This document shows positions 33,417 to 61,749 of a stretch of DNA of 64,000 nucleotides, in pieces (positions within the stretch are counted from its first letter, which is position 1; each line of letters starts with the position of its first letter). Source of the stretch: Candidatus Peribacteraceae bacterium (GTDB taxonomy: Bacteria > Patescibacteriota > Gracilibacteria > Peribacterales > Peribacteraceae); contig JAQVVD010000002.1 of NCBI GenBank assembly GCA_028699155.1, positions 25,773-89,772 of the forward strand, in the 5' to 3' direction. The notes beneath the pieces are model-generated. The model searched no databases. It saw only the letters and a list, made by a program, of their open reading frames with translations, and was not told the origin of the DNA. Position numbers and translations under genes: made by a program.

Positions 33417-33444
33417 TGTTGCTAGTAGAGTAAATCCAAAGCAT

Positions 33445-33497: not shown

Positions 33498-33511
33498 TCT
33501 ATCCTTCTTGT

Positions 33512-34675: not shown

Positions 34676-34706
34676 GACCTCTAAAAAAACACTGAATTGG
34701 CACAGT

Positions 34707-34742
34707 TCGACAGAGCTCACTGTGACATTCTGTCGAGTTTTT
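34707..34742 (+). terminator. intrinsic terminator candidate between convergent genes
   Basis: 8-bp stem TCGACAGA (34707-34714) / TCTGTCGA (34729-34736), then G + TTTTT (34738-34742). An A7 run at 34683-34689 could serve the opposite strand. Confidence 0.45.
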
Positions 34743-34758
34743 AGCGGTTCCTATTGTT

Positions 34759-35643: not shown

Positions 35644-35729
35644 GGCGAAATGCTATTCCCCCTACTCCGATCATTCCAGCTTTTCCGTGTTTTATGGTTG
35701 GGAAAATGATTTTTCGCTAGCATGCGCAT

Positions 35730-38085: not shown

Positions 38086-38089
38086 TATA

Positions 38090-38938: not shown

Positions 38939-38975
38939 GTACAATGCGCGATTCTTTGTTTGTACCACGCGAACA

Positions 38976-40619: not shown

Positions 40620-40685
40620 TTGCCGGAACTCCCGCCGCGTCTTCTTGTGGCGCGTGCCCCCTTCCGCTAGCGTTTTAGCGCACTC

Positions 40686-45941: not shown

Positions 45942-45992
45942 TGAAACAGTCTTCCTTTCTCCTCGTTCTGCTTCATATTTACTGATAAGCTC

Positions 45993-47507
45993 GTGCCGTT
46001 TCCTATGGATCAATCTGCATCCAATCCTCCGATACGAGCTATTGCCGGGAGGTTCTCCTTCCGTTTTTCCAAGCAGGCGCTTTCACGCGTGTTCAAGCAC
46101 CGTCCTTTTGAATACTGCGCCCTGATTTCCAAGGGCAAGGAGCCGGATTTTTTTGCTGAAATTCCCTTGGAGAACCAGGAGTGGTTTGATTCCGGCGAGG
46201 TGCGCGGCTGCAAATATGCCGGGGTTGATTGGAATGCGCTTGCGCCTTTGGATGCCACGCTCATTGAGCGCATGCGCGAGTGCGAATGTATGTTCATGGA
46301 TGTCATCGCCCGACTGGAGTGGAAGCGCAGCATACCGTATGCAACCCGCAAGCGCTGGTATCTGCAGCACCTCCGTTTCTGGAATGATTACCTTTCCCGG
46401 CATCGCATCAATCTGTATCTCTCCGCATGGATGCCGCACGAGCTCCCGGATCTCATCATTTACTATTTGTGCAAGGCAAGGAGCATTCCTGTCCTATACT
46501 TTGACGCCTCTGCTGTGCGAGACACATCTTTTGCCGAACACGATATCAAGCAGTCATCCATCCAGATTCGCCAACGCTACGAGGAGCTTGCAGCGGAGTA
46601 TGCCGATGTAACTGACCCAAAAGACATACCCCTGAGTGACCGGTTTGAACAGCGGTACCAGGCGCTCACTGCCCCAATGGGAGAAGAGCCTCCGCTTGAG
46701 AACGTTTGGAATACCACCTATTTCGACCATGTTCGAAAGCTGCTGATTGAGAAGCCGCTGTTTTTCTGCAAGTGCGCCCTGCAGTATGTAACTCCCAGGG
46801 GCATTGCCAGGGCGCGCAGCACATGGCGACGGAAGAGAATTATTGAGGAACGCAATGCATTCTACGAGGCGCATGCCGTAACGCCCGATTTATCCAAACC
46901 GTTTGTGTACATGACGCTGCATTACCAGCCGGAGGCATCTACTATTCCGATGGCCGGCGCATATCGGGAGCAATTGCTTATTGCGCAGACGCTGAATGCC
47001 TGCCTGCCTGATGGCGTGATCATTTACGTAAAAGAGCACCCCCGCAATAGTGGCTGGCTGCAGCGGAGCATTGCGTACTATGAGGATTTTCTGGCGCTCG
47101 AAAAAGTGCGTTTTGTGCCCCGCTCATTCGATACATTCACACTCCGCGAACATTGCATGGCGGTTGCCACGGCAACCGGCACTATCGGGTTCGAGGCGCT
47201 TTTTCGCGGCAAGCCCACGCTCATGTTCGGCCATAGGTTCTATCAGTACGCGCCGGGCGTCTATCAAATCCATTCCATGGATGACTGCAGGCGCGCCGTA
47301 CACGATATTTTCGTTGAGAAGAAAGCACCCACGCTCAAAGAGGCGCGCTTGTTCATGAAAGCAATGGATGACACATGCATACATGGCACGCTGAATATCT
47401 GGCATCTCAAAGTCTCACACTTATCAGATGAGGAGCATATGCAAGCCAATGCGGAGGCGATGCTACACGAGCTTTCCCTGCTTGCTCCGGCGATAGCAGC
47501 CGTGTAA
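45993..47507 (+). CDS. KpsS/KpsC-like (Capsule_synth-type) putative CMP-sugar ulosonic-acid transferase, paralog 1
   Basis: LHYQPEAST...YVKEHPRN...VATATGTIGFEALFRGKP. Family assignment is from memory of the LQxxxD / HP motif pattern. Start may be ATG 46005. Confidence 0.5.
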   Translation: MPFPMDQSASNPPIRAIAGRFSFRFSKQALSRVFKHRPFEYCALISKGKEPDFFAEIPLENQEWFDSGEVRGCKYAGVDWNALAPLDATLIERMRECECMFMDVIARLEWKRSIPYATRKRWYLQHLRFWNDYLSRHRINLYLSAWMPHELPDLIIYYLCKARSIPVLYFDASAVRDTSFAEHDIKQSSIQIRQRYEELAAEYADVTDPKDIPLSDRFEQRYQALTAPMGEEPPLENVWNTTYFDHVRKLLIEKPLFFCKCALQYVTPRGIARARSTWRRKRIIEERNAFYEAHAVTPDLSKPFVYMTLHYQPEASTIPMAGAYREQLLIAQTLNACLPDGVIIYVKEHPRNSGWLQRSIAYYEDFLALEKVRFVPRSFDTFTLREHCMAVATATGTIGFEALFRGKPTLMFGHRFYQYAPGVYQIHSMDDCRRAVHDIFVEKKAPTLKEARLFMKAMDDTCIHGTLNIWHLKVSHLSDEEHMQANAEAMLHELSLLAPAIAAV

Positions 47508-47549: not shown

Positions 47550-48794
47550 ATGGGTTCTATGAAGATCGTCCTTCTTAACGACGATATGTTGCCTGAGGCG
47601 AGGGGCGGCGCCGCGGTTGTTGTCGATCGTCTGCGGCGGGCGTTCACGGAACAGGGCCACGAAGTCATGCTCATTTCGACGCATCAAGATACCGCCAATA
47701 ATGTGCGGAATGTGCAGGATGGCATCGGCAGGATCATGCAGATCCCGGTGCGCTATGATTTTCGCAAGAGGCATCGCTATTGTGTCTCTAAACCGGCCGG
47801 TGTGCTGGACGCGATTGATGCGGCGCTCCGCGAGTACAAGCCCGATATCGTCCATGCGCACAATGTACATTCGTCTATAACGTACAGCGCACTCCGGGTT
47901 GCGCAGAGGCATACCGATTCCCTGTTCCTGACTGCCCATGACACATTCCTCGTTTCGTTCGGGCGCGTGTGCGGCGGTGCATATGAGCGGGACGCTCTTG
48001 CGGGGCGCGGACACCACATGCGGTTTACCGAGCATATACAGGCTGTCGGGAGACGGTACTGGCCGCTGCGCAACAGTGCGATCAGGCGGATTCTAGAGCA
48101 GACGGGGACACAGGTGATTGCCATCAGTGAGGCGCTCAAGATATTTCTTGAAGCCAACGGTATTCGGGTTTCTGCAGTCGTGCACAACGGCGTAGAGGTG
48201 AACCCGCCCATTGGCCAGGATGCCGTTGGAACATTCCGGCATACGCACAAGCTCACTGGTCCGACAATTCTCTACGGAGGCCGAATGAGTGAAGACAAGG
48301 GGAGTCTTGAACTATTGCGCGCGTTTCCGCTTGTGCGCAAACATTGTCCCAATGCGCAACTTCTGCTGCTTGGCGATCCGGAGCGTATTGCCTCCGCTTT
48401 GGACATGCTGTCGCAGCAGGATCGGCAGGGGGTTATTCTTGCAGGCTGGCTGCCGCAGGAGCAGGTGCGCATAGCATTCGCCGCTGCAACGGTTGTCACC
48501 ACGCCGTCAATTTATCTCGATTCATTCAATCTGATGAATATTGAGGCGATGGCCGAGGGGACGCCTGTTGTCGGGACATGTTTTGGCGGGACGCCGGAAA
48601 CAATCGTAGACGGCGTAACAGGGTACGTTTGCAATCCTCATGAGACATCCGCTTACGCCCAAGCTCTTACAACTATTCTTTCAGACAGCAGCCTGGCCAA
48701 GCGCATGGGTGATGCCGCACGGGTGCATGTGGTAAAGGAATTCTCGCTCGAGAAACAGGCTGCGCAGTACATGCATCTCTATTCGCGAGCGTGA
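47550..48794 (+). CDS. GT4-family glycosyltransferase
   Basis: KIVLLNDDMLPEARGGAAVVV, NIEAMAEGTPVVGTCFGGTPE. Confidence 0.8.
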   Translation: MGSMKIVLLNDDMLPEARGGAAVVVDRLRRAFTEQGHEVMLISTHQDTANNVRNVQDGIGRIMQIPVRYDFRKRHRYCVSKPAGVLDAIDAALREYKPDIVHAHNVHSSITYSALRVAQRHTDSLFLTAHDTFLVSFGRVCGGAYERDALAGRGHHMRFTEHIQAVGRRYWPLRNSAIRRILEQTGTQVIAISEALKIFLEANGIRVSAVVHNGVEVNPPIGQDAVGTFRHTHKLTGPTILYGGRMSEDKGSLELLRAFPLVRKHCPNAQLLLLGDPERIASALDMLSQQDRQGVILAGWLPQEQVRIAFAAATVVTTPSIYLDSFNLMNIEAMAEGTPVVGTCFGGTPETIVDGVTGYVCNPHETSAYAQALTTILSDSSLAKRMGDAARVHVVKEFSLEKQAAQYMHLYSRA

Positions 48795-48828: not shown

Positions 48829-50265
48829 TCACCGCCAGTACGGCTGTATTTTTTCCCGCATGGTTTTCCCCATTATCACCGCTTTTTCCTCCTGCGTGTG
48901 TTCCTCGTGGGAGCCTGTCGGACCTCCCACATACGGCTGCGTACAATTTTCTATTGCCCGTAGGAAAAGCCGCATGTCTCTCAATGTCGGGGTTTCCCCG
49001 TTTTCCACAATACTCTGTACGGCTTTCTTGCAATCCTCGTTTGTGCTGACCCTATGCACCCCCGGTGCATACTGAAAGAACCTGTGCCCAAACATTATTA
49101 CAGGTTTGCCTTTAAACAGCGCTTCCAGCCCGGCTGTTCCTGTTGCTGTTGCTACGGCTACCGCATGCGCTGTCAGCACAAACGTACTAAAGTCCCTTCG
49201 TATGAGTTTGACCGATGGAATATTTGCCAGTGTTTCATAGAATGCTTTGCTGCGGCATATTTCCCCCTGTGCAGGGTGTTCTTTGATGTAAATCTTTACG
49301 TCCGGCGGCAGATGTGCCGCCAGCATTTGCGCCATGAGTTCCTGATTGTTGAATACGCCTGCCATTGGACATGTTGTGGCTTCTGGTTGCAGGTGCAGTG
49401 GTAGGTAAATGTATCTTTCCTTCAGGTCTGGCTCCTCTGCCATCTGATCGTACAACTTGGAAGTATTATGCTGGCTGACTTTTCTTGTCCAGAATTCCAG
49501 TGAAAGCAGTGAGGAGAGTAAATATTTCGGTTTCTTAAAGAGCAGTTCCAGTGCGGTTTTGCCCCATTTAAGGAAGAAACTTCGGCGTGCCAGATGTTTC
49601 TCTCTGCGGAACATGTACCACGGGTCCTCGTTTTTGGTCGTATACTTCCGGAAGATTTCCTCAAATTTGTCGGAGAGCTTCACTTCCTGTTTCGGATCGT
49701 TGTTTTCCGCCTGCACAACAGCCAGCTCTCTCCGAAGTGCCTCCCCCGCTTCTCTGTAATCGCTCTCCAGAAGGAAGGCATCCATGATCACAAATCTCTC
49801 TATGTAGAAGAACGGGATCTGCTTTATTTTGCAGAGGGAGTACAGCACGTAATCGTAGCACTGGTGCGGCACGGTATAGCTCAGTACCAAATCAATTTTT
49901 TTGGTTTCGAGCAGATGATTAAAATAGAGGAAATGCCGGAGGTACTGCCGCTTTCTCTCATGGTAAGAAATGTCCCGGTACTTTGTGTACCGGTCTACCA
50001 TAGCTATGAATGTCGCCTCACAACCGCGCATTTTTTCCATCAGGTCTTCATCCAGCGGCGTGACCGCATTCCAATCCACATTTGAATGTTCCTCCCTCAT
50101 CAATTCTTTGGCAGGCAGCCAAATGTGCTCTTTTGCATCCAGTGTTGGCCATTGCTGCTTGTCATTCAGTATGGAAATGCAGGTATCCATCTTCAGCCCT
50201 TTTAGAGCTGCTTCCACAATCTCTTTGCACAGCACGCCGTCGAACGCTTTTAAAATGATATTCAC
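48829..50265 (-). CDS. KpsS/KpsC-like putative ulosonic-acid transferase, paralog 2
   Basis: About half the residues are identical by eye to 45993-47507 over the C-terminal domain (LHLQPEATT...YIKEHPAQ...VATATGTAGLEALFKGKP). Confidence 0.5.
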   Translation of the reverse strand: MNIILKAFDGVLCKEIVEAALKGLKMDTCISILNDKQQWPTLDAKEHIWLPAKELMREEHSNVDWNAVTPLDEDLMEKMRGCEATFIAMVDRYTKYRDISYHERKRQYLRHFLYFNHLLETKKIDLVLSYTVPHQCYDYVLYSLCKIKQIPFFYIERFVIMDAFLLESDYREAGEALRRELAVVQAENNDPKQEVKLSDKFEEIFRKYTTKNEDPWYMFRREKHLARRSFFLKWGKTALELLFKKPKYLLSSLLSLEFWTRKVSQHNTSKLYDQMAEEPDLKERYIYLPLHLQPEATTCPMAGVFNNQELMAQMLAAHLPPDVKIYIKEHPAQGEICRSKAFYETLANIPSVKLIRRDFSTFVLTAHAVAVATATGTAGLEALFKGKPVIMFGHRFFQYAPGVHRVSTNEDCKKAVQSIVENGETPTLRDMRLFLRAIENCTQPYVGGPTGSHEEHTQEEKAVIMGKTMREKIQPYWR

Positions 50266-50303: not shown

Positions 50304-51389
50304 TTAGCTCACCAATTCCCAAGTAAGCGGAGTTCCTCTCTCGATTCGTGCAGCCGCTTTTTTCCCAAGCACATTTTCAAACTCCTTTGGCGGCAGGCCG
50401 TTTGCGGGGCGAATGGATCGGACATTCTCTTCTGAGAATATCTCCCCCTTCTGCATGTTCCTTACTACGAATAAAGACCGGCGGAATTGCAGGCTCTTCT
50501 TATCCTGGCCGCTCGCGCCGTACGATACGTTTCCCAGTATTGTCTTATTAAGCTTATCTCCGGGGGTAGGGGATTGTTCCTGCGCCCGGATTGCATCCAC
50601 CATTTCTTTAAATTCATTCGGCTCTAATGAAAACGCGTTATCCGGTCCCGGTTTGCTCCGATCGAGTGTGAAGTGTTTTTCAATAACACATGCACCTAGT
50701 GCAACTGCGGTGAGCGGCACCTCTTGTTCCAATGAGTGATCGGAAAGCCCTACGGGGAGCTTGAACCGTTCCATCATATCCGGAATGGTTGCAAGGTTCA
50801 TTTCCTCTGGTTTTGCGGGATACGCACTGGTGCATTTGAGTAGAATAATTTGATCATTCTCCGAAGAATGTACCGCATCTACAGCATCTTGAATTTCTTG
50901 AATACTTCCCATTCCGGTCGAGATTATTACAGGCTTGCCTTTTGCAGCAATGTAGCGAATTAGTGGTATATCAACCAGTTCGAAAGATGCGACCTTGAAT
51001 GCTGGGACTCCCATTTCGTCTAGAAAATCCACCGCTTTAGTATCGTGTGGCGTGGAAAACAGATCCATACCTAATTCATTTGCAAGATTCATTAATTTTG
51101 GTTGCCAACCCCAAGGCGCATATAACTCTTCGTAGAGCTCATACAGATTCCGGCCCTCCCATGCCGTGCCTTTTTCAATCATGAATTCCCTTTTGTTGCA
51201 TTGCAACGTGATCGAATCGGGAGTGAATGTAAGCAGTTTGACTGCATCTGCACCCGCAGCCTTCATTTCGTGAAGCATTCTGACAGCACAGTCAAAGTCT
51301 TGAAGATGATTCCCTGACATTTCGGCGATTACGTACGTTGGGTGGCCAGTTCCAACAATTTTATCGCCAATAGATACTGTCGAGCTCAT
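50304..51389 (-). CDS. nonulosonic acid synthase (PseI/LegI/NeuB family) with SAF domain
   Basis: VIAEMSGNHLQD, AVKL, FKVASFELVD, GLSDHS, C-terminal SAF. ATGA overlap with the upstream gene (51386-51389). Confidence 0.85.
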   Translation of the reverse strand: MSSTVSIGDKIVGTGHPTYVIAEMSGNHLQDFDCAVRMLHEMKAAGADAVKLLTFTPDSITLQCNKREFMIEKGTAWEGRNLYELYEELYAPWGWQPKLMNLANELGMDLFSTPHDTKAVDFLDEMGVPAFKVASFELVDIPLIRYIAAKGKPVIISTGMGSIQEIQDAVDAVHSSENDQIILLKCTSAYPAKPEEMNLATIPDMMERFKLPVGLSDHSLEQEVPLTAVALGACVIEKHFTLDRSKPGPDNAFSLEPNEFKEMVDAIRAQEQSPTPGDKLNKTILGNVSYGASGQDKKSLQFRRSLFVVRNMQKGEIFSEENVRSIRPANGLPPKEFENVLGKKAAARIERGTPLTWELVS

Positions 51390-52075
51390 CGGATTTCACG
51401 AATTAATTCGAAGGCTTCTGCCGCTCCAAATCCCGACACACTGCCCCAATAAATTGCATGTGCCCTCAAGACTTCCTCCGAACGAGGGTGCGGGAATGCG
51501 CGCATTTCTTGTTCGTAGACTTTCATTGCAGATATTTTGCTTTCCAACGTATTGCTAATGTCCTCGAATGTTGTTGGGTGGAATCTTGGGGAAAAAGACT
51601 GGAATGCCCATTCGGTTGACGATGGTACCTCGTATGCGTACACCTGTTTTACTGTTCCCCCTTCCATTGGACGCGTTGCGGTGAGTACTGCCCTGAATGT
51701 GCGCTCATGGTCGATGTTTAGATCTCCCCCATGTTGGGTGAATACCATAGAAGGTTTTATTTGCTTAACATGGTCCTCTACCATTTTTATGATTTCCAAA
51801 AGCGGCACGGTATCGAACCTATTATCAGGAAGATGCCCGATTTTCACGCTTTGTGCCCCAAGAATTTTCCCAGCCTTTGCAGCTTGGGTATGCAATTCTT
51901 GTATTTGCTTTTTGTCTGTTTCCGCGGGGCTGGAATATCTGGACGTGATACCTTCTCCCAGTATAATAATATGAACAGAGTTCCCTTCTTTTGCGAGCTT
52001 TGCAATTGTTCCTCCACAGCCTAGCACCTCATCGTCTGGGTGTGCGGCAACAACTAGAATATCCATTTTTCTCAA
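51386..52075 (-). CDS. PIG-L/LmbE-family N-deacetylase
   Basis: ILVVAAHPDDEVLGCGGTIAK signature. Confidence 0.8.
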   Translation of the reverse strand: MRKMDILVVAAHPDDEVLGCGGTIAKLAKEGNSVHIIILGEGITSRYSSPAETDKKQIQELHTQAAKAGKILGAQSVKIGHLPDNRFDTVPLLEIIKMVEDHVKQIKPSMVFTQHGGDLNIDHERTFRAVLTATRPMEGGTVKQVYAYEVPSSTEWAFQSFSPRFHPTTFEDISNTLESKISAMKVYEQEMRAFPHPRSEEVLRAHAIYWGSVSGFGAAEAFELIREIR

Positions 52076-52208
52076 GAAGTAGAGATAATTATAAACATAT
52101 CAATTCTATAATCCGCGCGAAAATTTACTAATTTTTTTCACAGTATTTCAAAAATTATACAATGAAATTGTATTCGTTCAATTCCTTCTGCCATATATCA
52201 TACAGCCA

Positions 52209-53144
52209 GTGCTTAATGTTTTAATTACTTGCGCAGGCGGAGCGGGGTCACAGTATTTGGCCGAGTCTGTACGCAATACGTACAATATCTTTCTTGCAGA
52301 TGGGAATGACGAAATAGTTGCTGCTCATTCGGATCTGCCGTTTCAAAAAATTCCGCTTGGATCAGACCCTGCCTACAAAGCATCAATTACCACACTCGTA
52401 AAGAAACTAAAAATAGATTTTATTGTCCCCGGCGCGGATGAAGAATTGATACCGCTCGCTATCTTGCATGAAGAGAGTGTCGTCAAGTGCGTGATGCCTA
52501 TCAAGCATTTTGTTGAGGCATGTTTGCACAAAAAGAAGCTTATGCATTTACTCCACCAGCACGGTCTTTCAACACTACTCCCCTTTGCTACGGAAGACGA
52601 GGTGGTATTTCCCGCAGTTGCAAAACCAATTTTCGGCAGAGGGTCGTATCAAGCCCATCGGATTGATACCAAACATCAATTAGAAGGGTATTTGAAACTT
52701 TACAGCAAAACATTCCCAGAAATATTAGTGCAGCCATGCATAGATGGTCAGGAGTATACGGTTTCGGTGATTCTAAATAACATGAACAAGCTCATTGGCA
52801 TTGTCCCAAAGCGCATCATTCGCAAAAAGGGCATTACGCAAGTCGCAGTAACAGAAAACAATGCTTGTATTGAGGAAGTGTGCAAGAAAATTGTCGAAAC
52901 AATGAATCCGTGCGGTCCGTTCAACGTGCAACTAATGTTGCTAAAAAATACGTGTTACATATTTGAAATTAATCCACGACTCTCCACTACTGCGGTACTT
53001 ACGGACAAAGCCTTTGGGAATGAAATAGATCTATTTATTCGGCACTATGATCACGACAGAATTTTTCCATTACCTGCAATGAGAGAGAGGGTGTACCTTT
53101 ATCGAGGCACTCAAAATTTCTTTGTTGATGCAGCAAATATTTAG
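52209..53144 (+). CDS. ATP-grasp enzyme
   Basis: Size and layout are typical of ATP-grasp ligases (FIVPGADEE, VAKPIFGRGS, EYTVSV, FEINPRLS). GTG start. Confidence 0.65.
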   Translation: MLNVLITCAGGAGSQYLAESVRNTYNIFLADGNDEIVAAHSDLPFQKIPLGSDPAYKASITTLVKKLKIDFIVPGADEELIPLAILHEESVVKCVMPIKHFVEACLHKKKLMHLLHQHGLSTLLPFATEDEVVFPAVAKPIFGRGSYQAHRIDTKHQLEGYLKLYSKTFPEILVQPCIDGQEYTVSVILNNMNKLIGIVPKRIIRKKGITQVAVTENNACIEEVCKKIVETMNPCGPFNVQLMLLKNTCYIFEINPRLSTTAVLTDKAFGNEIDLFIRHYDHDRIFPLPAMRERVYLYRGTQNFFVDAANI

Positions 53145-53160
53145 CATCTTGGCGCGTTTA

Positions 53161-53850
53161 TCATAGTGGGAATCTTTTACCATCTGATCGGATCACCAGA
53201 TTTTCATCTATAGAAAGTGCGCCCATGTATTTTCCATATCCAGCTCCCAAATCTATATTTATGTATCCTTTCTCTATTGTCGGCTCATTTCCGAGGTATG
53301 TATTCCCCGCCACGATTCTGTACAGGTCTAGATATTTTCTGTTCATCGGAATGTCTTTTGGTCGCAAGAAGAAATTTCTCTCTTCAAAGTTCAAAATTTT
53401 CTTTGTGTATTGCTCTTTTAATAGACCGGCATGAAGTGCCAAATAGTCTTTTGTGATGTACCAATCCTTCGTTTTATCAATCAAATTAAAATATAGTTGT
53501 AGCCTATCTTTTAATAGTTCTACGTTGTTGTTCAGCAGTGCGTGCTGCACTTTTTTTGGATATTGTTGCAATGCCTCCATCCCTCCATATTGCAGGAGAA
53601 ACGACTGTCTTTCGAGATCCTGCCCATTTACATATTTGTCCCATACGAACTCATGATTCCCTCTAATGAAGATACAATGACATTCTTTATCAAGTTCGTT
53701 TAAAAGCTGAAGAGTCTGTTCGGTATTTGTTTGTTTATCAATATAGTCTCCAAGAAAAATAAGTGTAGTGCTGCTTTCTGGCCGGATCTGCCGAAGCAAT
53801 GATTCTAACTCTCGTACGTTTGCGTGAATGTCGCCAATTATGTAGGTCAT
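53161..53850 (-). CDS. calcineurin-like metallophosphoesterase
   Basis: IIGDIHAN, FLGDYIDK, RGNHEF motifs. Confidence 0.75.
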   Translation of the reverse strand: MTYIIGDIHANVRELESLLRQIRPESSTTLIFLGDYIDKQTNTEQTLQLLNELDKECHCIFIRGNHEFVWDKYVNGQDLERQSFLLQYGGMEALQQYPKKVQHALLNNNVELLKDRLQLYFNLIDKTKDWYITKDYLALHAGLLKEQYTKKILNFEERNFFLRPKDIPMNRKYLDLYRIVAGNTYLGNEPTIEKGYINIDLGAGYGKYMGALSIDENLVIRSDGKRFPL

Positions 53851-54524
53851 AACATTTCGAAAATATTAACGTCGTCTCCAGACGATTTGCCAAATTCCCC
53901 CTTTGCAGTTCTCAGGATAATATCGGCGACATCTTGCGGAGGGACTCCACGATAACCTGTCATGTCTGTTTTAGTCATTCCGGGGTGGACTGATACGATA
54001 CGCAAGCTTTTTTCATCAAGTGCCAATGCTTTTGTAAAACCCCTGATGCCCCATTTTGTCGCGCAGTATGGGGCTAGTTCTGGATCACCCATGTATCCAG
54101 CACCGCTTCCAATGGAAATTATTGTCTCCCGAATGTATGGCAGAAGAAGTTTTGTCAATTTAAGTGTGCCCTCAAGGTTTGTTCGAATTTGATATTCGAT
54201 TTCATCAAATGTTTGATCGCGAAGCCGTTTCCAAACTATAACACCTGCGTTATTAATTAGTACATTTAGGTGCCCATAATTACTTTTTATAAATTCTGCG
54301 CACATCTCGATACTCTTATTATTTCCGAGGTTTAGCTCTATTTCCTCAGCCCTTTCTGCACCAAGATCATGACATTTTTTACACAAATCTTGTGCCATTT
54401 TCCTGTTTCTTTGGTACGTAACCAAAAGAATGGCACCCTCTCCTGCAAGTTTGTATGCAGTCTCTGCACCGATGCCCCGACTGCCACCCGTAAGAAGAAT
54501 GGTTTTACCTCGGAGCAGATTCAT
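53847..54524 (-). CDS. short-chain dehydrogenase/reductase
   Basis: LLTGGSRGIGAE, NNAG, YCATK motifs. Confidence 0.8.
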   Translation of the reverse strand: MNLLRGKTILLTGGSRGIGAETAYKLAGEGAILLVTYQRNRKMAQDLCKKCHDLGAERAEEIELNLGNNKSIEMCAEFIKSNYGHLNVLINNAGVIVWKRLRDQTFDEIEYQIRTNLEGTLKLTKLLLPYIRETIISIGSGAGYMGDPELAPYCATKWGIRGFTKALALDEKSLRIVSVHPGMTKTDMTGYRGVPPQDVADIILRTAKGEFGKSSGDDVNIFEML

Positions 54525-54590
54525 AGTTTTATCCTAAGTTACGAGCCACTAGATCACAACCTTTTACCGCAGAATCCACTTCTAATTCCC

Positions 54591-56102
54591 TCAGTCCTCG
54601 TTCATGTTTTTGGATAAATAGTAGACTGGAAAACCATGCTCCACCCCTGTTTTTTCCCCTGAAAATCCAGCCTTCCTAAACGCCCGCACTGACGCTGAAT
54701 TTTTCTGTTTTATTGTCGCCTGAAAGTTGTGTGCGCTATGTACAGACCACATTCGCCGTATGCCGATATTTATTAGGGCGGAACCATATCCCTTCCCTTG
54801 AAATTTCGGATCAATGTGCACATCAATTTCTACTGTCATTCCATCGGGAATGCTATTAAATCGAATTTGACCGATCGGTTGATTCTCACTGTTTATTGCT
54901 ATAAATATTTGGCATTCTCGGTCGCTTAGCGATCGGAGAAACCACTCAATATGATCCTCCCACTCAATTGGTTCGGAATGGAAAGCTGCAGCTCGGACAG
55001 TCCGATTATTCGCCCATTGAAACAATAGATTGCAGTCAGCTTTTCTAGCATCCCGCAACCATAATTTTTCATTTGCAAGTTCCATACACACTCTGGCTGC
55101 GCCATGACCGTCGACCAGTGATTTTCCTGCTTGAGACATCGTCGTACGTTTGACCTGATCAGTCAGCAACTTGCGGAGCGCATCCGATATTTCTTTTGGC
55201 GATACATCTGCATGCCAGCCGAGATTGACGGCAGCATCGGACTCTTCCATTCCCTCTGCGACTGCCCTTTGATTATCGGCCAGAACAATGGAGAGCGCAG
55301 GAAGGCCGACGCAGGCAAGCTCATAGCACGTGGTTCCTCCTCCAGAGATTGCGATATCGGCCCACTCCATAAGCCTTTTCATGTTCGTTGCATCTACGAT
55401 GATTTCCATTCCTCTCGCGTCCCCGTCGGTTTGTATGCGTTGGATGTTCGGGTTCACGCCGCCTACAACGATTGTGGCTGCAAGTCCTTTAACAGATGTA
55501 ATAGCTTCAATGACTTTCGCCGTCACATTTTCCGGATCGCTGCCGCCGAGGGTAACCAGAATTTTTCGTGCCGCAGGGGCAATTTCTTTCTCGGCCGTTT
55601 CCTGCGCGAACTCTTTTCTTAGCAGTGCAAAAGTGGTTCCGAGCAGCAGCTTTGTTTCCGGTTCCCGTGATTCATACAACTCTTCCGATGCGTACACATT
55701 CTGGTTTAAGACAATGTCTGCGCAGTAATGCTCTGCATGTCCGTAATCATCAATAAACAGTAATTTGTGCCCATTCTGTTTTATGGATTGCTGGTACGAG
55801 GCAGAGAAATCGTACCCGTCCACAACGATCCACTGCGCATTGGTTTTCGTGGCACACGCTGCCGTTTCTACCGCATCTTCTTCCGTATATGGTTCAGCGG
55901 AGAGGGCGCGCACAGTGCATCCTTCCTCCTCAATTCTTTTTCGGATGGTATCCGGCAGTGTCTTCGAAAGAAATTCCACCATGCCGCTCCCGGCTTTCCA
56001 CTCCTGTGCAAGTGCGAGGCACCGCATGGCATGACCGGCGCCGATTTGCGTGCCTGCATCGGTTCTAATGACAAGATTCTCGCGCATGAGGATGTATTGC
56101 AT
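54591..56102 (-). CDS. PseG-like UDP-sugar hydrolase fused to GNAT N-acetyltransferase (PseH-like)
   Basis: VIRTDAGTQIGAGHAMRCLALA N-terminus (PseG/SpsG signature). C-terminal ~165 aa is GNAT (QGKGYGSALI). Start is either ATG 56102 (TAATG overlap with the upstream stop) or 56087. Confidence 0.75.
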   Translation of the reverse strand: MQYILMRENLVIRTDAGTQIGAGHAMRCLALAQEWKAGSGMVEFLSKTLPDTIRKRIEEEGCTVRALSAEPYTEEDAVETAACATKTNAQWIVVDGYDFSASYQQSIKQNGHKLLFIDDYGHAEHYCADIVLNQNVYASEELYESREPETKLLLGTTFALLRKEFAQETAEKEIAPAARKILVTLGGSDPENVTAKVIEAITSVKGLAATIVVGGVNPNIQRIQTDGDARGMEIIVDATNMKRLMEWADIAISGGGTTCYELACVGLPALSIVLADNQRAVAEGMEESDAAVNLGWHADVSPKEISDALRKLLTDQVKRTTMSQAGKSLVDGHGAARVCMELANEKLWLRDARKADCNLLFQWANNRTVRAAAFHSEPIEWEDHIEWFLRSLSDRECQIFIAINSENQPIGQIRFNSIPDGMTVEIDVHIDPKFQGKGYGSALINIGIRRMWSVHSAHNFQATIKQKNSASVRAFRKAGFSGEKTGVEHGFPVYYLSKNMNED

Positions 56103-56839
56103 TAAATATACTGGCCCGCATCTACCTTGAGTACCTGCCCGGTAATGTGCCGCGCCTCTTCGCTGCACAAGAATGCAACCACGGGCGCGATATCTTCGGG
56201 TTGCCCCAATCGTTTTATGGCGCATTCACTCAAGACAAGCTCGCGCACGGAATCCGGCGTGTCCACTTGCGATGTTGTTTCTATAAAACCGGGAGCAACC
56301 ACATTTACATTGATATTGTATTCGCCCAATTCCAGTGCGGCGGCTTTTATCAGGCCGGTCAGGCCCGCCTTCGCCGCGTTGTAGCTTGCGGTTCCACGGC
56401 GTGCGCGCAGACCGTTGATTGATCCGATGGAGACGATTTTTCCCGCCTTCTGTTGTATGAAAACAGGGGAGACGGCATGGATGTAGTTGAATGTTCCCTT
56501 CAGTGTCACATCAATCACTTCGTCCCAGTCTTCCTCCGAAAGCTCCCACAGAGTCCCTTTGCGCGCAATGCCGGCACTGCATACCAATGCATGTAAGCCG
56601 CCAAGCTGCTTCTCTATCGTTTGTACTATCTCTTTTGCGCGTGAAAAGTCGGCTGCATTTGCCTGTATGGCAATTGATTTTCCGCCCAATGCTTCTACTT
56701 CTTTCACTAAAGACTCGGCTGCCTCTTTTTCACTCAAGTATGTAAAGGCTACGTCATTGCCAGCTTTTGCGAGCGTTCGTACGATTTCCGCCCCAAGTCC
56801 GCGTGATCCTGCCGTTACCAGTGCTACGCGTTTTTGCAC
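56102..56839 (-). CDS. SDR, FabG-like 3-oxoacyl reductase
   Basis: ALVTAGSRGLGAEI, YNAAK, overall FabG-like. Confidence 0.8.
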   Translation of the reverse strand: MQKRVALVTAGSRGLGAEIVRTLAKAGNDVAFTYLSEKEAAESLVKEVEALGGKSIAIQANAADFSRAKEIVQTIEKQLGGLHALVCSAGIARKGTLWELSEEDWDEVIDVTLKGTFNYIHAVSPVFIQQKAGKIVSIGSINGLRARRGTASYNAAKAGLTGLIKAAALELGEYNINVNVVAPGFIETTSQVDTPDSVRELVLSECAIKRLGQPEDIAPVVAFLCSEEARHITGQVLKVDAGQYI

Positions 56840-56862
56840 GGGAAAATGCTATCACAATTGCG

Positions 56863-57852
56863 CTACTTGTCGCTCATTTTTGCCGTATTTCTGGCCTGCA
56901 GGGCAATTTGCAGAGCGGCATTTGCTTCCGCCAGATTCCTCCGGGGGGCCTGCTGCGTTTCAATGCATTCCAAAAAGTGCTTCATTTCATCGATATACAT
57001 GTCATTTGGTTCCCAATTTTCAGGTTCAGCAAAGGAATCCACGATCTTTCCGTCCCGGTTCTTCACTTCCACAATTTTCTCAGTAAAGTCCCACCTTATG
57101 GATCCTTTAGTGCCTGTAATCGCGCAGAAACGCCTGTATTCCGGTTCGGTAAAACTCAGGTGCACATGGCTTTTCATTCCTCCTTCATGCACCAAATTAA
57201 TATCGGCTGTACCATCGATTTCCGGCAGACCAATTGTTGCCGCTGACTGGGTTGTGGCCTGCGCGATTTTTGCCGGGCCGAAGTACCAGAGAGCCAGGTC
57301 AATTTCATGGATGCAGTCGAGCACTGCCCCGCCCTGGGCAGGATCTGCGCTGTAGCTCTTTTTGTAGTCCTGCTGCGGTCTCCAGTTTGGCAGATAGGAT
57401 CCTGTGTACACCTCTGCCTCAAGAATTTTTCCTATCCTTCCTTCATCAAGCAGCTTCTTTACCATTGCGGGTCCCGGGTGGAACCGCATATTGCAGCCGA
57501 CCATGCAGGCGCGGTTTCGCTTGGCGGTCTCTTCCTGCAATTCGTCGATTCTTTCGGGGGTATGTGAGAGCGGTTTTTCTATAAATACGTGCGCGCCTGT
57601 TTTTGCCGCTTCGAGCGCTTGCGGCACATGCGTGATCGTCGGGCCGCATGCCAACACGATTGACGGCTTATAGCGCGTGAGCGCCTCAGTGAAATCCGCA
57701 AACGGCTCAACTTGCAGTTCATCCGCAGCGTTTTTGAGGTGATCCGCATCAGGATCGCTTACCGCTAAATCGTTTATCCCTAAAACCCGAAGATTGCGCA
57801 GATGCCGCATTCCGATCGAGCCTGCTCCGCTCACAAGGATCCGCCGCTTCAT
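56863..57852 (-). CDS. Gfo/Idh/MocA-family oxidoreductase
   Basis: Trimmed to MKRRILVSGAGSIGMRH (ATGA overlap 57849-57852). EKP motif IEKPLS. Confidence 0.8.
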   Translation of the reverse strand: MKRRILVSGAGSIGMRHLRNLRVLGINDLAVSDPDADHLKNAADELQVEPFADFTEALTRYKPSIVLACGPTITHVPQALEAAKTGAHVFIEKPLSHTPERIDELQEETAKRNRACMVGCNMRFHPGPAMVKKLLDEGRIGKILEAEVYTGSYLPNWRPQQDYKKSYSADPAQGGAVLDCIHEIDLALWYFGPAKIAQATTQSAATIGLPEIDGTADINLVHEGGMKSHVHLSFTEPEYRRFCAITGTKGSIRWDFTEKIVEVKNRDGKIVDSFAEPENWEPNDMYIDEMKHFLECIETQQAPRRNLAEANAALQIALQARNTAKMSDK

Positions 57853-59027
57853 TTGGCATAGTGGGTACAAACCTTCCTTACCGCCTCCACTATGTCCTGC
57901 GCATCATCATCAGTCATTCCTGTGAACAGCGGCAATGAGATGATTTCTTCGTACGCCTTTTCTGCCACAGGGAACATTCCTTTCTTCGTGCAGAATGTCC
58001 TTTGGTAGAAGGGGTGCAGATGCACCGGAATGTAGTGCACATTCACGCCGATATTTTCCGCACGCAACGCTTCGAACGCCTTTGTGCGGTCTATGCCCAG
58101 CCGCACGACGTAGAGGTGGTAGGCATGCGACACATTATCGCGGACTTTGAGCGGAGTTACCGCCGACATTCCTGCAAACGCCTCGTCGTACATGCCCGCA
58201 ATTTCCTGCCTGCGCTTTGTCCATTTCGGAACATTCTTCAGCTGGCTCATGCCAAGCGCGCATTGAAAATCCGTTAGGCGGTAGTTATAGCCAAGATCCG
58301 TCATTTCGTAGAACCAGGATCCTCTCTCCTGCCGTTCGCGATGGTCGCTTGTGAGACCGTGATTCCTGAATTGCCGCATCTTCTTCGCATAGTCCTCGTT
58401 GTCTGTTGTGATCATTCCGCCTTCGCCCGTTGCAATCGGTTTTACCGCATGGAAACTGAAGGTATTTATATCAGCGAGCGTGCCGACCCTCTTTCCATTC
58501 TCTAATCCGCCAATGGCGTGGCACGCATCATCCACAAGCGGCAAATTATGTTCCCTGGCAATTGTCCGCAGCGCCTCATACTCGCACGGTTGCCCCGCGT
58601 AATCCACGGAGATTATCGCCTTGGTTTTCTCCGTAATCGCCTCTTCGACTTTCGTTGGATCTATGAGGAGCGTATCCGGTTCGCTATCCACGAATACGGG
58701 GGTGCCACCCTGGAACACAATGGCGTTTGCAGTAGATGCAAATGTCATTGTCGGCACTATTACCTCATCTCCTTTCCTTACACCCAATGCGAACATCGCC
58801 GCGTGGAGCGCAGCCGTTCCATTGCTTACAGCAATCGCTTCTTTTGCCCCTGTAAAGGAGGCAAATACTTCTTCAAACTTTCCTACAGTCGGTCCGGTTG
58901 TAAGCCAGTCAGACCGAAGCACTTCTTCCATGGCACGAATGTCATCATCGCTTACCGTCTGTCGGCTGTAGGGGAGCAGCTTCTCCCGCACCGGAGTTCC
59001 GCCGTCGATGGCGAGCTTTTCCTGCAT
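57849..59027 (-). CDS. DegT/DnrJ/EryC1-family PLP aminotransferase (PseC-like)
   Basis: Trimmed to MQEKLAIDGG (ATG 59027). FHAVKPIATGEGG lysine motif. Confidence 0.8.
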   Translation of the reverse strand: MQEKLAIDGGTPVREKLLPYSRQTVSDDDIRAMEEVLRSDWLTTGPTVGKFEEVFASFTGAKEAIAVSNGTAALHAAMFALGVRKGDEVIVPTMTFASTANAIVFQGGTPVFVDSEPDTLLIDPTKVEEAITEKTKAIISVDYAGQPCEYEALRTIAREHNLPLVDDACHAIGGLENGKRVGTLADINTFSFHAVKPIATGEGGMITTDNEDYAKKMRQFRNHGLTSDHRERQERGSWFYEMTDLGYNYRLTDFQCALGMSQLKNVPKWTKRRQEIAGMYDEAFAGMSAVTPLKVRDNVSHAYHLYVVRLGIDRTKAFEALRAENIGVNVHYIPVHLHPFYQRTFCTKKGMFPVAEKAYEEIISLPLFTGMTDDDAQDIVEAVRKVCTHYAK

Positions 59028-59038
59028 TTTCCAAATAG

Positions 59039-60004
59039 CTACATCATCTTTTTCAGCTGATCTACAGTCAGCCATTCCTCATTCGTGTCACTGGCGTATC
59101 TGAATCCGTCAGTGATATTGGACTTCGGCCAACTCTCTTTTCTCCATGTTGTGTTTTCGGGGAAAATCACAAAGGAATCACTGCGTTCCATTGCGTTTCT
59201 GCTCTCATCTTCCGAAAGGAGCACTTCATGCAGTTTTTCCCCCGGGCGAATGCCCACGATTTTCTTCTTGCAGTCGGGAGCCAGTGCCTCGGCAAGATCT
59301 ACGATCTTCATGCTCGGAATTTTCGGTACGAACACTTCGCCGCCGATCATTTCTTCAATCGAGTTGATGACGAACTGCACGCCCTGTTCCAGGGTGATCC
59401 AGAACCGCGTCATGCGTTCATCGGTTATGGTGACTGTGCCCGTTTCTCGCTGTTTCTTAAAGAGAGGGATAACGCTGCCGCGGCTCCCCACTACGTTTCC
59501 GTAGCGCACGCATGCAAAGCGTGTTTTCGCCGTACCGCTGTATGCATTCCCCTGCGTAAACACTTTTTCTGCCACAAGTTTGGTGGCGCCGTATAGATTC
59601 ACGGGATTCACCGCCTTATCCGTGCTCAGTGCCAGCACTTTTTTCACTCCGGAATCCAGCGCGGCTTCTATGATGTTCTCCGCTCCTCCTATGTTCGTTT
59701 TTACGGCCTCAATCGGGTTATATTCACATGCCGGTACATGCTTGAGCGCCGCCGCATGCACCACAATATCCACACCTGTCATCGCCCGGCGCAGCCGGTC
59801 GCGGTCGCGAACGTCTCCGATGAAGTAGCGCATGCGGGGATCATCAAATCCTTCGCGTTGCATCTCATACTGCTTGAGTTCATCGCGGCTGAACACGATT
59901 ACCTTCTTTGGCTTATGCTCTTTCAGCACTGTTTCAATGAATTTTTTCCCGAAGGATCCGGTGCCGCCGGTTACGAGAATTGAGAGAGAATCCAGGTTGC
60001 CCAT
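59039..60004 (-). CDS. pseB: UDP-N-acetylglucosamine 4,6-dehydratase (PseB/FlaA1/CapD-like)
   Basis: Trimmed to MGNLDSLSILVTGGTGSFGKKF. SRDELKQ, STDKAVNPVNLYGATK. Confidence 0.8.
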   Translation of the reverse strand: MGNLDSLSILVTGGTGSFGKKFIETVLKEHKPKKVIVFSRDELKQYEMQREGFDDPRMRYFIGDVRDRDRLRRAMTGVDIVVHAAALKHVPACEYNPIEAVKTNIGGAENIIEAALDSGVKKVLALSTDKAVNPVNLYGATKLVAEKVFTQGNAYSGTAKTRFACVRYGNVVGSRGSVIPLFKKQRETGTVTITDERMTRFWITLEQGVQFVINSIEEMIGGEVFVPKIPSMKIVDLAEALAPDCKKKIVGIRPGEKLHEVLLSEDESRNAMERSDSFVIFPENTTWRKESWPKSNITDGFRYASDTNEEWLTVDQLKKMM

Positions 60005-60036
60005 ATGATGCGAATCGTAGCACAAAACAGGAGAAA

Positions 60037-60984
60037 TTAAGTGATTTTCCGTTGTTTCTCCTTCGGTTTCCATATCAACACTGACGTTGGGTTTAGAGGG
60101 CTTACACCATAGACATCATAATCGTTGCGCAGGATTTCAATATCATTCCGATTTTGTACGATGCTGAGCAGATCTTGATTATAGTCATTCATTTTTGTGT
60201 ATTTCTTCCTCATCATACCCAAGAGCGTATTGTCACAATTTTCATGAATTGGTTCCATATGCACTACTGCAACAAGGCGATCAAAGTATTGTGAAAGTGT
60301 CTGGATCACATTCTCTGCTGTCGGCAACTGTTCGATTGCGTGCCTGGTGATGAGGAGCACCTTCGAGTTCGCACCGCATTGTTCCAGAATGTTGTATGTA
60401 CTGTCATAAAAATTACAGTACTTTACCGAAATCAGTGGCGAGTTCTCATACAGCATACTTGCTGTTTCGATAGCATTTTTCGAGTATTCTCCGCCAATGT
60501 ATTTTTTGCCCGGGTATTTTTTGCTCAGTTCCCAAAGGTTGATTCCGTACCCGCATCCTATTTCAACCACCGTATCAACTTTTTTCATGAAAGGCTTGGC
60601 GTACTTTGTCAGCAGATTCGCATTGAAGTCTGCGATTCGGTCCGCGGGCATTTCGTACAGTTTTCCTTTGCGCGAGATGCAGATCTTGCCAAGATTGCCT
60701 GATCTTAATTCATAATTTTTTACATCACTCGCATCGATAATTTCTTTTTGTCTTTTTACGAACATCAGGCAATCCGCATATTTATCCTTATCGTATTCGC
60801 TATCTATTTTTTCGACTGTTCTTCGGGGGGTTTGCCACCCCTTTATGCCAAGCAATCTTTCTGGCCAGGGTGACCATTGCGGCAATTCATTCAAAGGAAT
60901 TTTCCTTGCGAAGCAGCTCGTTTTAGACATGATTTTTTGCAGGGGATGATGTAACACATTTTTATTCCTTTGCGCATATGGCAT
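60037..60984 (-). CDS. class I SAM-dependent methyltransferase-like protein
   Basis: VVEIGCGYGINLWEL motif I. About 40% GC. Start may be the internal MSKTS (60930). Confidence 0.65.
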   Translation of the reverse strand: MPYAQRNKNVLHHPLQKIMSKTSCFARKIPLNELPQWSPWPERLLGIKGWQTPRRTVEKIDSEYDKDKYADCLMFVKRQKEIIDASDVKNYELRSGNLGKICISRKGKLYEMPADRIADFNANLLTKYAKPFMKKVDTVVEIGCGYGINLWELSKKYPGKKYIGGEYSKNAIETASMLYENSPLISVKYCNFYDSTYNILEQCGANSKVLLITRHAIEQLPTAENVIQTLSQYFDRLVAVVHMEPIHENCDNTLLGMMRKKYTKMNDYNQDLLSIVQNRNDIEILRNDYDVYGVSPLNPTSVLIWKPKEKQRKIT

Positions 60985-60999
60985 TGCAGCCGGATTGTA

Positions 61000-61749
61000 T
61001 CACTTGCGCTGATATTGTTTCCACCTTCTGAAAACGTTTTTGTTCAGCTTCATTATGTCTGGGTTTTCGTCCAGGAATGCGAGCATTTCATGCAGGCTGA
61101 AATTGTTTCGGGGGGCAAAATTATCCACAATTGCTTCGATCACTCTCGCATCTTCTTCCGTATCCACATCCAAGTGGATATCCGGGCGATGTAGGTTTCC
61201 CTGCGCTTCGATATTCATGATTTTGTATATCTCGGGATGCTGCCGCATGCACAACGTCCCGTGTTCACGCACTGCAGGATCCTGCGTGCGTTCCGCCGCT
61301 TCTTTGAGCGTTTGGACGGCAAATACCTCTGCGTAGCATCCCGATGGGTATGACGCCTTCATGTCGTTGCCGATCAGATCATAGGAGTCATCCTGCCGAT
61401 ATATGCCGATAAGCTCATCAATGACTGCGGGATCAATGAGCGGTCCGTCGCCATATACCTGTACTCCGATATCCGCTTTTTCCTGTTCCAACGCTCCGAT
61501 CATGCGTGCGACAACGTCATCTTCCGGCCCTCTATGACAAGAGATGTTTTTCTCTTTGCACAGTTGCGCAAGCACATCATTCTCAGCACCTTCAGGTATT
61601 GCCACCACGATGCCGTCGATTTTTTGGGATTGCCGGACACGGTCAATCAAATGTTCAATCATCGGCTTCCCTCCTATGTCGTGCATGTGTTTGCCCGGGA
61701 GCCGCTCAGACCCCATGCGCGCGGCGATGATCGCAACAATTTTTGGCAT
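61000..61749 (-). CDS. cytidylyltransferase (SpsF/PseF-like, CTP_transf_3)
   Basis: Trimmed to MPKIVAIIAARMGSERLPGKHM, an SpsF-type signature. Confidence 0.75.
   Translation of the reverse strand: MPKIVAIIAARMGSERLPGKHMHDIGGKPMIEHLIDRVRQSQKIDGIVVAIPEGAENDVLAQLCKEKNISCHRGPEDDVVARMIGALEQEKADIGVQVYGDGPLIDPAVIDELIGIYRQDDSYDLIGNDMKASYPSGCYAEVFAVQTLKEAAERTQDPAVREHGTLCMRQHPEIYKIMNIEAQGNLHRPDIHLDVDTEEDARVIEAIVDNFAPRNNFSLHEMLAFLDENPDIMKLNKNVFRRWKQYQRK

Follow-up and report, generated by a model that had tools for sequence, protein, structure and literature searches.

We analyzed a stretch of 64,000 nucleotides (the window) from the Candidatus Peribacteraceae bacterium assembly GCA_028699155.1, contig JAQVVD010000002.1, concentrating on a block of nonulosonate biosynthesis genes at positions 50304 to 61749. 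The block holds 12 uninterrupted open reading frames (ORFs), 11 on the minus strand and one, encoding an ATP-grasp protein, on the plus strand. Domains were assigned with Pfam and NCBIfam models with curated cut-offs. Five of the minus-strand genes encode a pseudaminic acid synthase, PseI (50304-51389; TIGR03586); PseG fused to a C-terminal GNAT domain (54591-56102; TIGR03590); the aminotransferase PseC (57849-59027, with an alternative start at 59075; TIGR03588); the inverting UDP-GlcNAc 4,6-dehydratase PseB (59039-60004; TIGR03589); and an SpsF-type cytidylyltransferase of the CTP_transf_3 family (61000-61749; PF02348, 95 bits). Interleaved with them are seven further genes, for which the models returned the same domains as had been named in a first-pass annotation of this DNA. 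These genes encode a PIG-L/LmbE-type zinc de-N-acetylase (51386-52075, minus strand; PF02585); the ATP-grasp protein, a predicted amide ligase (52209-53144, plus strand; PF02655 and PF15632); a calcineurin-like metallophosphoesterase of the lambda-phosphatase/ApaH-like kind (53161-53850, minus strand; PF00149); a classical short-chain dehydrogenase/reductase (SDR) that we call SDR2 (53847-54524, minus strand; PF00106, 141 bits); a FabG-like classical SDR of the adh_short_C2 type (56102-56839, minus strand; PF13561, 201 bits); a Gfo/Idh/MocA oxidoreductase, here Gfo (56863-57852, minus strand; PF01408 and PF22725); and a class I S-adenosylmethionine-dependent methyltransferase-like protein (60037-60984, minus strand), recognized from weak Methyltransf matches.

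The 1- to 4-nucleotide overlaps claimed for four gene junctions were all read from the sequence. ATGA overlaps join PIG-L to PseI (51386-51389), the stop of SDR2 to the start of the metallophosphoesterase (53847-53850), and the start of Gfo to the stop of PseC (57849-57852), and the sequence TAATG is found at 56102. The identical gene set and order came out of an independent gene call on a 16-kb Logan contig from the same organism. The likely start of the PIG-L gene is the ATG at 52066. Between the divergent PIG-L and ATP-grasp genes lies a 133-bp AT-rich spacer (52076-52208), which is likely to be a bidirectional promoter region. The GC content is 38 to 43% in the genes for the ATP-grasp protein, the metallophosphoesterase, SDR2, and the methyltransferase (0.42 in the last) and 52% in those for PseB, PseC, Gfo, and the FabG-like SDR. 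The low GC content of the former four suggests that they were acquired laterally.

The core genes matched the models of the pseudaminic acid (Pse) pathway. PseB scored 516.6 bits against a cut-off of 407.75, PseC 458.3 against 423.5, PseG 238.8 against 153.55, and PseI 452.8 against 340.25. The corresponding models of the legionaminic acid (Leg) and neuraminic acid pathways failed: LegB gave 64 bits against a cut-off of 475, LegC 247 against 420, and NeuB (NeuB_NnaB) 294 against 400. The PseB protein was also far under the FnlA cut-off. Since PseB, PseC, PseG, and PseI all pass their cut-offs while the LegB, LegC, and NeuB models all fall short, we rejected the Leg pathway; judged by these models, the pathway encoded at the locus is that of Pse. 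The assignment of the dehydratase as PseB or LegB had been proposed as a check, and it came out on the side of PseB. The passing scores of both PseB and PseC likewise speak against the concern that the dehydratase/aminotransferase pair might belong to a non-nonulosonate pathway.

The best solved match of PseI was the pseudaminic acid synthase 8h2c (E = 1.6e-81). PseI retains every residue that is invariant among 50 synthases linked to relatives of the ATP-grasp/metallophosphoesterase pair described below, namely, E23, N27, H28, K51, K132, S216, H218, E237, K238, H239, and R327. These include the histidines of the SDH and EKH motifs and the arginine of the SAF domain, so that the loss of catalytic residues, raised earlier as a possible flaw, was not seen. 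The first-pass annotation had described the core set as complete. This held for PseB, PseC, PseG, and PseI but not for the PseH-like and PseF-like labels, both of which fell under their cut-offs.

The GNAT domain fused to PseG scored 40.2 bits on the PseH model (TIGR03585), against a cut-off of 93.1, and its nearest solved relatives were SpeG-type N-acetyltransferases. The best solved match of the PseG part was Campylobacter jejuni PseG (3hbm). We infer, solely from its fusion to PseG, that the GNAT domain fills the role of PseH without being a PseH orthologue. The fusion itself, noted in the first pass, is real, but it is not novel: it has already been described in FlmD of Aeromonas caviae (PMC7874193). 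Among related loci, collected as described below, it is also present in those numbered L002, L005, and L008.

The cytidylyltransferase was far under the cut-off of the PseF model (TIGR03584; 35.7 against 205.7 bits), and its best solved match, over the full length, was 6oew, an uncharacterized protein listed as "cytidylyltransferase." Across the related Pse loci the SpsF type and the PseF/NeuA type are mutually exclusive: only 1 of the 28 loci bearing either type had both. This pattern supports the SpsF-type protein as the activating enzyme here, and we presume that it is the CMP-Pse-derivative synthetase, acting in the role of PseF without being its orthologue. SpsF, also a CTP_transf_3 protein, is a putative CMP-Leg synthetase in Bacillus subtilis (PMC7439481).

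To place the interleaved genes in context, we used an alignment-based scan of one-genome-per-species contigs, since a single-sequence scan of genome contigs gave no close relatives of the ATP-grasp protein. The scan yielded 79 loci, whose ORFs we searched with profiles built from the window proteins. In the first contexts that we examined (L002, L003/L004, L005, L085, and L086), genes for the ATP-grasp protein, PIG-L, and the metallophosphoesterase lay beside PseI and PseC, often together with a PseG-GNAT fusion. Co-occurrence was then counted within 10 kb at the 39 loci with close ATP-grasp orthologues, several of the misses being contigs that end near the gene. The metallophosphoesterase was present in 32 of the 39, PIG-L in 31, PseI in 34, PseC in 32, and PseB in 32. 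The ATP-grasp protein has hundreds of relatives at 40 to 62% identity, many of them from Patescibacteria and none with a functional name. The closest version of the sugar cluster in species-representative genomes was L008, itself from a Peribacteria genome. The window's own SufB (27675-29105) shares 70 to 78% identity with the SufB proteins of about 80 Candidatus Peribacteria/Peregrinibacteria genomes and has no closer match, which places the DNA in a Peribacteria-like member of the candidate phyla radiation.

In most related loci the metallophosphoesterase gene lies 0 to 900 bp from the ATP-grasp gene. The association extends to ATP-grasp proteins only 22 to 29% identical to that of the window: the ligase and phosphoesterase genes are adjacent or overlapping in Desulfovibrio, Methanospirillum, Lachnospiraceae, and Pelagibacteraceae (SAR11). 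The usual order in these distant relatives is reductase, phosphoesterase, ligase, beside PseI or PseG. As the reductase, the window and Methanospirillum have a classical SDR; Desulfovibrio, Pelagibacteraceae, and L086 have an extended SDR of the RmlD-like kind; and L002, L003, and L008 have an aldo-keto reductase. Three unrelated folds occupy this position, a case of non-orthologous displacement of a simple carbonyl reductase. The PseI model was matched at E ≤ 1e-95 by 45 of the 50 synthases linked to the ligase/phosphoesterase pair, which ties the association to Pse specifically. In L085 and L086, PseI is translationally coupled to the ATP-grasp gene.

On this comparative evidence, SDR2, the metallophosphoesterase, and the ATP-grasp protein are a conserved cassette, usually accompanied by PIG-L. 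A search with the PADLOC library of defense systems gave no meaningful match for it. Our literature search found no paper that links ATP-grasp, metallophosphoesterase, or LmbE/PIG-L proteins to pseudaminic acid or that describes the cassette, and its genes go unmentioned in a 2026 paper on Pse glycosylation in Clostridium. The first-pass annotation had called the tailoring set unusually rich, as if it were peculiar to this genome; the set instead contains a recurrent cassette. The same annotation had proposed that PIG-L, the ATP-grasp protein, and the FabG-like SDR together replace an N-acetyl group. Comparative genomics strengthened the PIG-L and ATP-grasp part of this proposal and removed the FabG-like SDR from it, the conserved partners being the metallophosphoesterase and SDR2, which had been treated as loose extras.

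The presence of PIG-L and of a GNAT is correlated. Among 33 reasonably complete loci, 20 had both, 5 had neither, and 8 were mixed (Fisher p = 0.03, uncorrected for phylogeny). This fits the idea that the ligase uses a free amine where there is no acetyltransferase and that a deacetylase is needed where there is one. In some relatives the ATP-grasp domain is fused to a formyltransferase in protein P0010 and to a GNAT in P0065 and P0118, and in Methanospirillum a GNAT-formyltransferase fusion (L069, 10695-11783) adjoins the ATP-grasp gene. In L085 (12326-15273) the cassette is followed by a small GNAT and then by three succinyl-CoA-ligase/citrate-lyase-like genes, whose domains are ATP-grasp_2 plus Citrate_bind, CoA_binding, and Citrate_synt. 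This trio may form a dedicated acyl-CoA supply.

We then looked at the residues and predicted folds of the cassette enzymes. The PIG-L protein scored 93 bits on PF02585, against a cut-off of 28. It has the zinc and catalytic residues expected of the family, in the HPDD motif (H12, D14, and D15) and in a downstream D-H pair (D122 and H123), and 93% or more of 41 orthologues retain them. It is not an equivalog of BshB/MshB (69 bits against a cut-off of 182). Members of the PIG-L family take the 2-N-acetyl group off GlcNAc-type glycosides.

The ATP-grasp protein passes the PF02655 and PF15632 cut-offs. Its AlphaFold model (pLDDT 95.4) has TM-scores of 0.7 to 0.8 to 2pn1, 3vot, and PurT, and the nearest folds are the uncharacterized 2pn1, followed by L-amino-acid ligases, PurT, and PylC. 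Five residues do not vary across 33 homologues: K139, E182, E253, N255, and R257, among them the lysine that binds ATP and the E-x-N site for magnesium. ATP-grasp enzymes with folds of this kind couple a carboxylate to an amine via an acyl phosphate, and PurT carries out formate-dependent amide formation on an amino sugar phosphate. The model thus places the window protein as a predicted amide ligase.

The metallophosphoesterase model (pLDDT 96.5) was nearest to the phosphatase domain of bacterial Pnkp, lambda phosphatase, a cold-active phosphatase, and ApaH, and, of the five metal-binding motifs of such enzymes (DxH, GDxxD, GNH[ED], H, and GH), the first four are present (D7, H9, D35, N65, H66, and H140). 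We also considered the protein as an LpxH-type UDP-sugar pyrophosphatase and rejected this assignment, the fold neighbors being instead lambda phosphatase, Pnkp, and ApaH.

The FabG-like SDR and Gfo have a narrower or looser distribution. Clear homologues of the former are limited, among the related loci, to the closest clusters, L002, L003, and L008. Gfo co-occurs with the SpsF type in nine related loci, with the PseF/NeuA type alone in three, and with neither in several, and it adjoins the SpsF-type gene in L086. Judged by this distribution, neither is part of the cassette. The FabG-like SDR fell short of the equivalog cut-offs for FabG and PhaB (the acetoacetyl-CoA reductase model gave 214 bits, where 302 are needed) and narrowly exceeded that of the FabG subfamily model NF009466 (225.8 against 222).

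Together with the SpsF-type enzyme, these two proteins make up another recurrent set, which recalls EpaA/EpaB of Acinetobacter baumannii prophages, which convert Pse to 8-epi-Pse and have the relatives AciE and LgaG (PMC12053666). At the level of domains, the CTP_transf_3, reductase, and adh_short_C2 SDR modules of EpaA/EpaB correspond to the SpsF-type protein, Gfo, and the FabG-like SDR of the window, which makes an epimerized backbone a real possibility. The window has three separate proteins, however, and a Gfo/Idh/MocA protein in place of the aldo-keto reductase. By analogy, the three proteins may also reverse the configuration of a secondary alcohol, in the way of EpaA/EpaB at C8. Alternatively, the FabG-like SDR might make a 3-hydroxyacyl donor, an idea that we rank neither above nor below epimerization. 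A search of phage records for EpaB-like relatives of the FabG-like SDR returned just ordinary fabG genes in fatty-acid operons or unannotated contigs.

The Methyltransf matches of the methyltransferase-like protein were all at or under the Pfam cut-offs, and no homologue of it was found in any of the 79 related loci. It thus appears to be specific to this lineage. In L003 a TylF O-methyltransferase lies inside the cassette.

Immediately downstream of PseI, the minus-strand ORF at 48829-50265 encodes a Capsule_synth (KpsS/KpsC-like) protein (PF05159, 51 bits). Homologues of this putative transferase also follow PseI in L003, L008, L009, L011, L016, L020, and L026, and it would be the enzyme that transfers the CMP-activated Pse derivative.

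Taken together, these results lead us to propose, with about an even chance (0.5) of being right, that the locus makes a CMP-activated Pse derivative and passes this derivative to a glycan. Orthology shows that PseB and PseC convert UDP-GlcNAc to UDP-4-amino-4,6-dideoxy-beta-L-AltNAc, that the PseG domain frees the sugar from UDP, and that PseI condenses it with phosphoenolpyruvate (PEP). From their positions and domain families, the GNAT domain would acetylate the 4-amine, the SpsF-type cytidylyltransferase would form the CMP sugar, and the Capsule_synth-like protein would transfer it.

As part of this proposal, the cassette probably exchanges one N-acetyl group for another acyl group. Given the activity of the PIG-L family and the amide chemistry of ATP-grasp enzymes, the simplest reading is de-N-acetylation followed by ATP-dependent reacylation. 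PIG-L would strip one N-acetyl group, by family analogy most likely the GlcNAc-derived 2-N-acetyl, the future N5, and the ATP-grasp protein would then join a carboxylic acid to the exposed amine at the expense of ATP. That the ligase is so closely tied to a phosphomonoesterase-like enzyme and a carbonyl reductase suggests an incoming acid that bears a phosphate and that has, or gives rise to, a carbonyl. The phosphoesterase and the reductase would then finish the new acyl group, the one by removing the phosphate and the other by reducing the carbonyl. Candidate acids are 3-phosphoglycerate, 3-phosphohydroxypyruvate, and PEP, which would require precisely these two finishing reactions and would lead to a hydroxyacyl group of the glyceroyl or lactoyl type, which the methyltransferase could methylate. 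What we infer includes which acid is used, which nitrogen is acylated, and at what stage the exchange takes place (UDP-sugar, free Pse, or CMP-Pse). Pseudaminic acids with N-glyceroyl and with methylated glyceroyl groups do occur in nature (PMC5378307; bioRxiv 10.64898/2026.04.20.719630). The scheme is supported by the fusions of the ATP-grasp domain to a GNAT or a formyltransferase, by the GNAT-formyltransferase fusion that adjoins the ligase gene in Methanospirillum, and by the TylF gene within the L003 cassette.

Extended beyond the window, the argument becomes tentative. The reductase/lambda-phosphatase-like/ATP-grasp cassette, with or without PIG-L, might conceivably be a widespread, uncharacterized, acyl-CoA-free route to non-acetyl N-substituents of Pse (hydroxyacyl or aminoacyl), with a phosphorylated central metabolite as the acyl donor. 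We regard this broader version as doubtful. Its carriers would be candidate-phyla-radiation bacteria, Proteobacteria, Bacteroidota, Clostridia, SAR11, and methanogens.

Several points weigh against the proposal for the window. The evidence for it is wholly comparative and structural-predictive, and the co-occurrence counts are not phylogenetically independent. Motif V of the window's metallophosphoesterase has Asn183 at the position of a metal-binding histidine that 34 of 35 homologues retain. A variant of 99% identity, obtained from a different sample, shows the same asparagine, which excludes a sequencing error, and the substitution may mean that the window's copy of the enzyme is weakened. 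The product of an ATP-grasp enzyme is not itself phosphorylated, and a phosphatase step therefore needs one more assumption, namely, that the acid brings a phosphate with it. Tannerella forsythia produces Pse5Am7Gra, and the gene for the glyceroyl group has not been found in its cluster (PMC6120980), which leaves the glyceroyl idea without a positive example. We considered the cassette as the source of the 7-N-glyceroyl group of T. forsythia, but no such genes are reported in that cluster, and it is not usable as support. Finally, about half of the related loci have no recognizable PseG, which would allow the phosphoesterase to act on the nucleotide sugar instead.

This last point is the starting point of an alternative that we consider unlikely: that the ATP-grasp protein and the phosphoesterase stand in for PseH and PseG or supplement them, the former acylating the 4-amine directly without acetyl-CoA and the latter cleaving the UDP-sugar pyrophosphate, with PIG-L as an optional addition. 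In many loci bearing the cassette pair, for example, L085, L086, L010, L013, L025, and others from Patescibacteria, no PseG could be detected within 10 kb; L056, L074, and L078 are among those without a GNAT; and ApaH, a structural neighbor of the phosphoesterase, hydrolyzes a nucleotide pyrophosphate bond. In the loci without PseG, either PseG is encoded elsewhere or another enzyme frees the sugar from UDP, and PseG or PseH could sit elsewhere in those draft genomes. PseG accompanies the pair in the window and in 20 further loci, however, and a GNAT is also present in 22 of 33, so that the pair is no simple substitute for either. The nearest folds of the phosphoesterase are mostly phosphomonoesterases, and the reductase would be left without explanation.

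The coupling of a phosphatase to a ligase is directly accounted for by a different scheme, in which the cassette attaches a phosphorylated amino alcohol in amide linkage to a glycan carboxylate, such as C1 of Pse or that of a uronic acid, and the product is then dephosphorylated. There is an experimental precedent for this order in the C. jejuni HS:2 capsule, where the ATP-grasp domain of Cj1438 forms the glucuronamide with serinol phosphate or ethanolamine phosphate before Cj1435 takes the phosphate off (PMC11800379). As a ligation to a phosphorylated partner followed by dephosphorylation, it is a precedent for our own proposal as well. The ATP-grasp domain of Cj1438 is TupA-like, and it and the Cj1435 phosphatase belong to families other than those of the window proteins. 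The sugar contributes the carboxylate in C. jejuni and most likely the amine in the window. The cassette has no conserved aminotransferase or decarboxylase as a source of the amine, and PIG-L, present in 31 of 39 loci, would have no role. We therefore judge amidation of this kind to be quite improbable.

Least probable of all is that the product is plain Pse5Ac7Ac and that the extra genes, interleaved with the Pse genes, serve other sugars of the same large polysaccharide locus. That locus does include a methyltransferase, an ABC exporter, and a second ulosonic acid pathway in addition to several glycosyltransferases. Against this reading, the cassette keeps its link to PseI and PseC in different phyla and domains regardless of what surrounds it, and translational coupling joins PIG-L to PseI in the window and PseI to the ATP-grasp gene in L085 and L086.

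The locus can be compared with several known systems. With the canonical CMP-Pse pathway of Helicobacter pylori and C. jejuni (PseB, PseC, PseH, PseG, PseI, and PseF) the locus shares PseB, PseC, PseG, and PseI and the logic of converting UDP-GlcNAc to a 2,4-diamino-altrose, condensing it with PEP, and activating the product with CMP. Unlike that pathway, it has a SpeG/RimL-like GNAT fused to PseG in place of PseH, the SpsF type in place of PseF, and the seven additional interleaved enzymes. The flagellin glycosylation islands of Aeromonas resemble it in that A. caviae FlmD unites the PseG glycosyltransferase-like and RimL-like acetyltransferase domains in one protein and that deacetylase, reductase, and methyltransferase genes are scattered among the pse genes (PMC7874193). 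The published description does not include the ATP-grasp/metallophosphoesterase pair, however, and the Aeromonas locus is flagellar, with Maf transferases, whereas in the window PseI is followed by a Capsule_synth gene.

The order of deacetylation and reacylation is familiar from another context. In mycothiol and bacillithiol synthesis, the deacetylase MshB or BshB frees a sugar amine, an ATP-dependent ligase then acts, and MshD is a GNAT. The window would share PIG-L-family deacetylation and ATP-dependent reacylation with these pathways, and a GNAT is encoded in the same locus. Here the ligase is an ATP-grasp protein rather than the class I tRNA-synthetase-like MshC, the substrate would be a Pse intermediate, and a phosphoesterase and a reductase are added. 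A nonulosonate example of N-acyl exchange comes from the Leg-like cluster of Candidatus Kuenenia stuttgartiensis, which contains a deacetylase and a formyltransferase and whose CMP-nonulosonates carry a free or formylated amine (bioRxiv 10.64898/2026.04.20.719630). The exchange there thus precedes glycan assembly. As in the window, the deacetylase is embedded between nonulosonate genes; unlike in the window, the backbone is of the Leg type, a formyltransferase takes the place of the ATP-grasp protein, and the cluster is not described as having a phosphoesterase or a reductase.

The functional locus continues past 50304 and reaches to 43351, taking in a second ulosonic acid pathway and two putative transferases. 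All the genes of this extension up to 48794 lie on the plus strand. They encode a NeuA-like cytidylyltransferase fused to a HAD phosphatase (43351-44451), which matches NeuA structures; a NeuB-like synthase fused to a C-terminal cupin (44412-45941), whose solved match is 3g8r (E = 1.4e-91) rather than PseI or NeuB; a second Capsule_synth-like protein (45993-47507); and a GT4 glycosyltransferase (47550-48794). The stretch from 43351 to 47507 looks like a second, phosphate-dependent ulosonic acid pathway, and its domain set of isomerase-like cupin, synthase, phosphatase, and cytidylyltransferase would suit a Kdn-like 9-phosphate route. A wider glycan locus at 32322-42500 encodes a GT2 glycosyltransferase, a class I methyltransferase, an LPG_synthase_TM membrane protein, and an MsbA-like ABC exporter. 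Two candidate GT4 ORFs in it, at 32322-33560 and 33443-34675, overlap on opposite strands. There are no flagellar or Maf genes among the annotated ORFs of the window, and the target of the activated sugars is therefore more likely to be a polysaccharide, a lipid-linked glycan, or a surface protein than flagellin.

The core Pse pathway and the PseG-GNAT fusion were already known. What is new is the widespread, unnamed tailoring cassette, of which the window holds a well-preserved example. The N-acyl groups of such sugars determine antigenicity, phage recognition, and antibody binding, and the enzymes that produce the non-acetyl variants are largely unknown. Workers on Tannerella have remarked that knowledge of nonulosonate-modifying enzymes is scarce (PMC5378307) and that the 7-N-glyceroyl gene is elusive (PMC6120980). 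A small cassette that accompanies the pse genes in different domains of life offers a candidate for one such route. In the organism studied here, a Peribacteria lineage with a small genome devotes about 18 kb to two activated ulosonic acids, and the two pathways bear on how these episymbiont-like cells present their surface.

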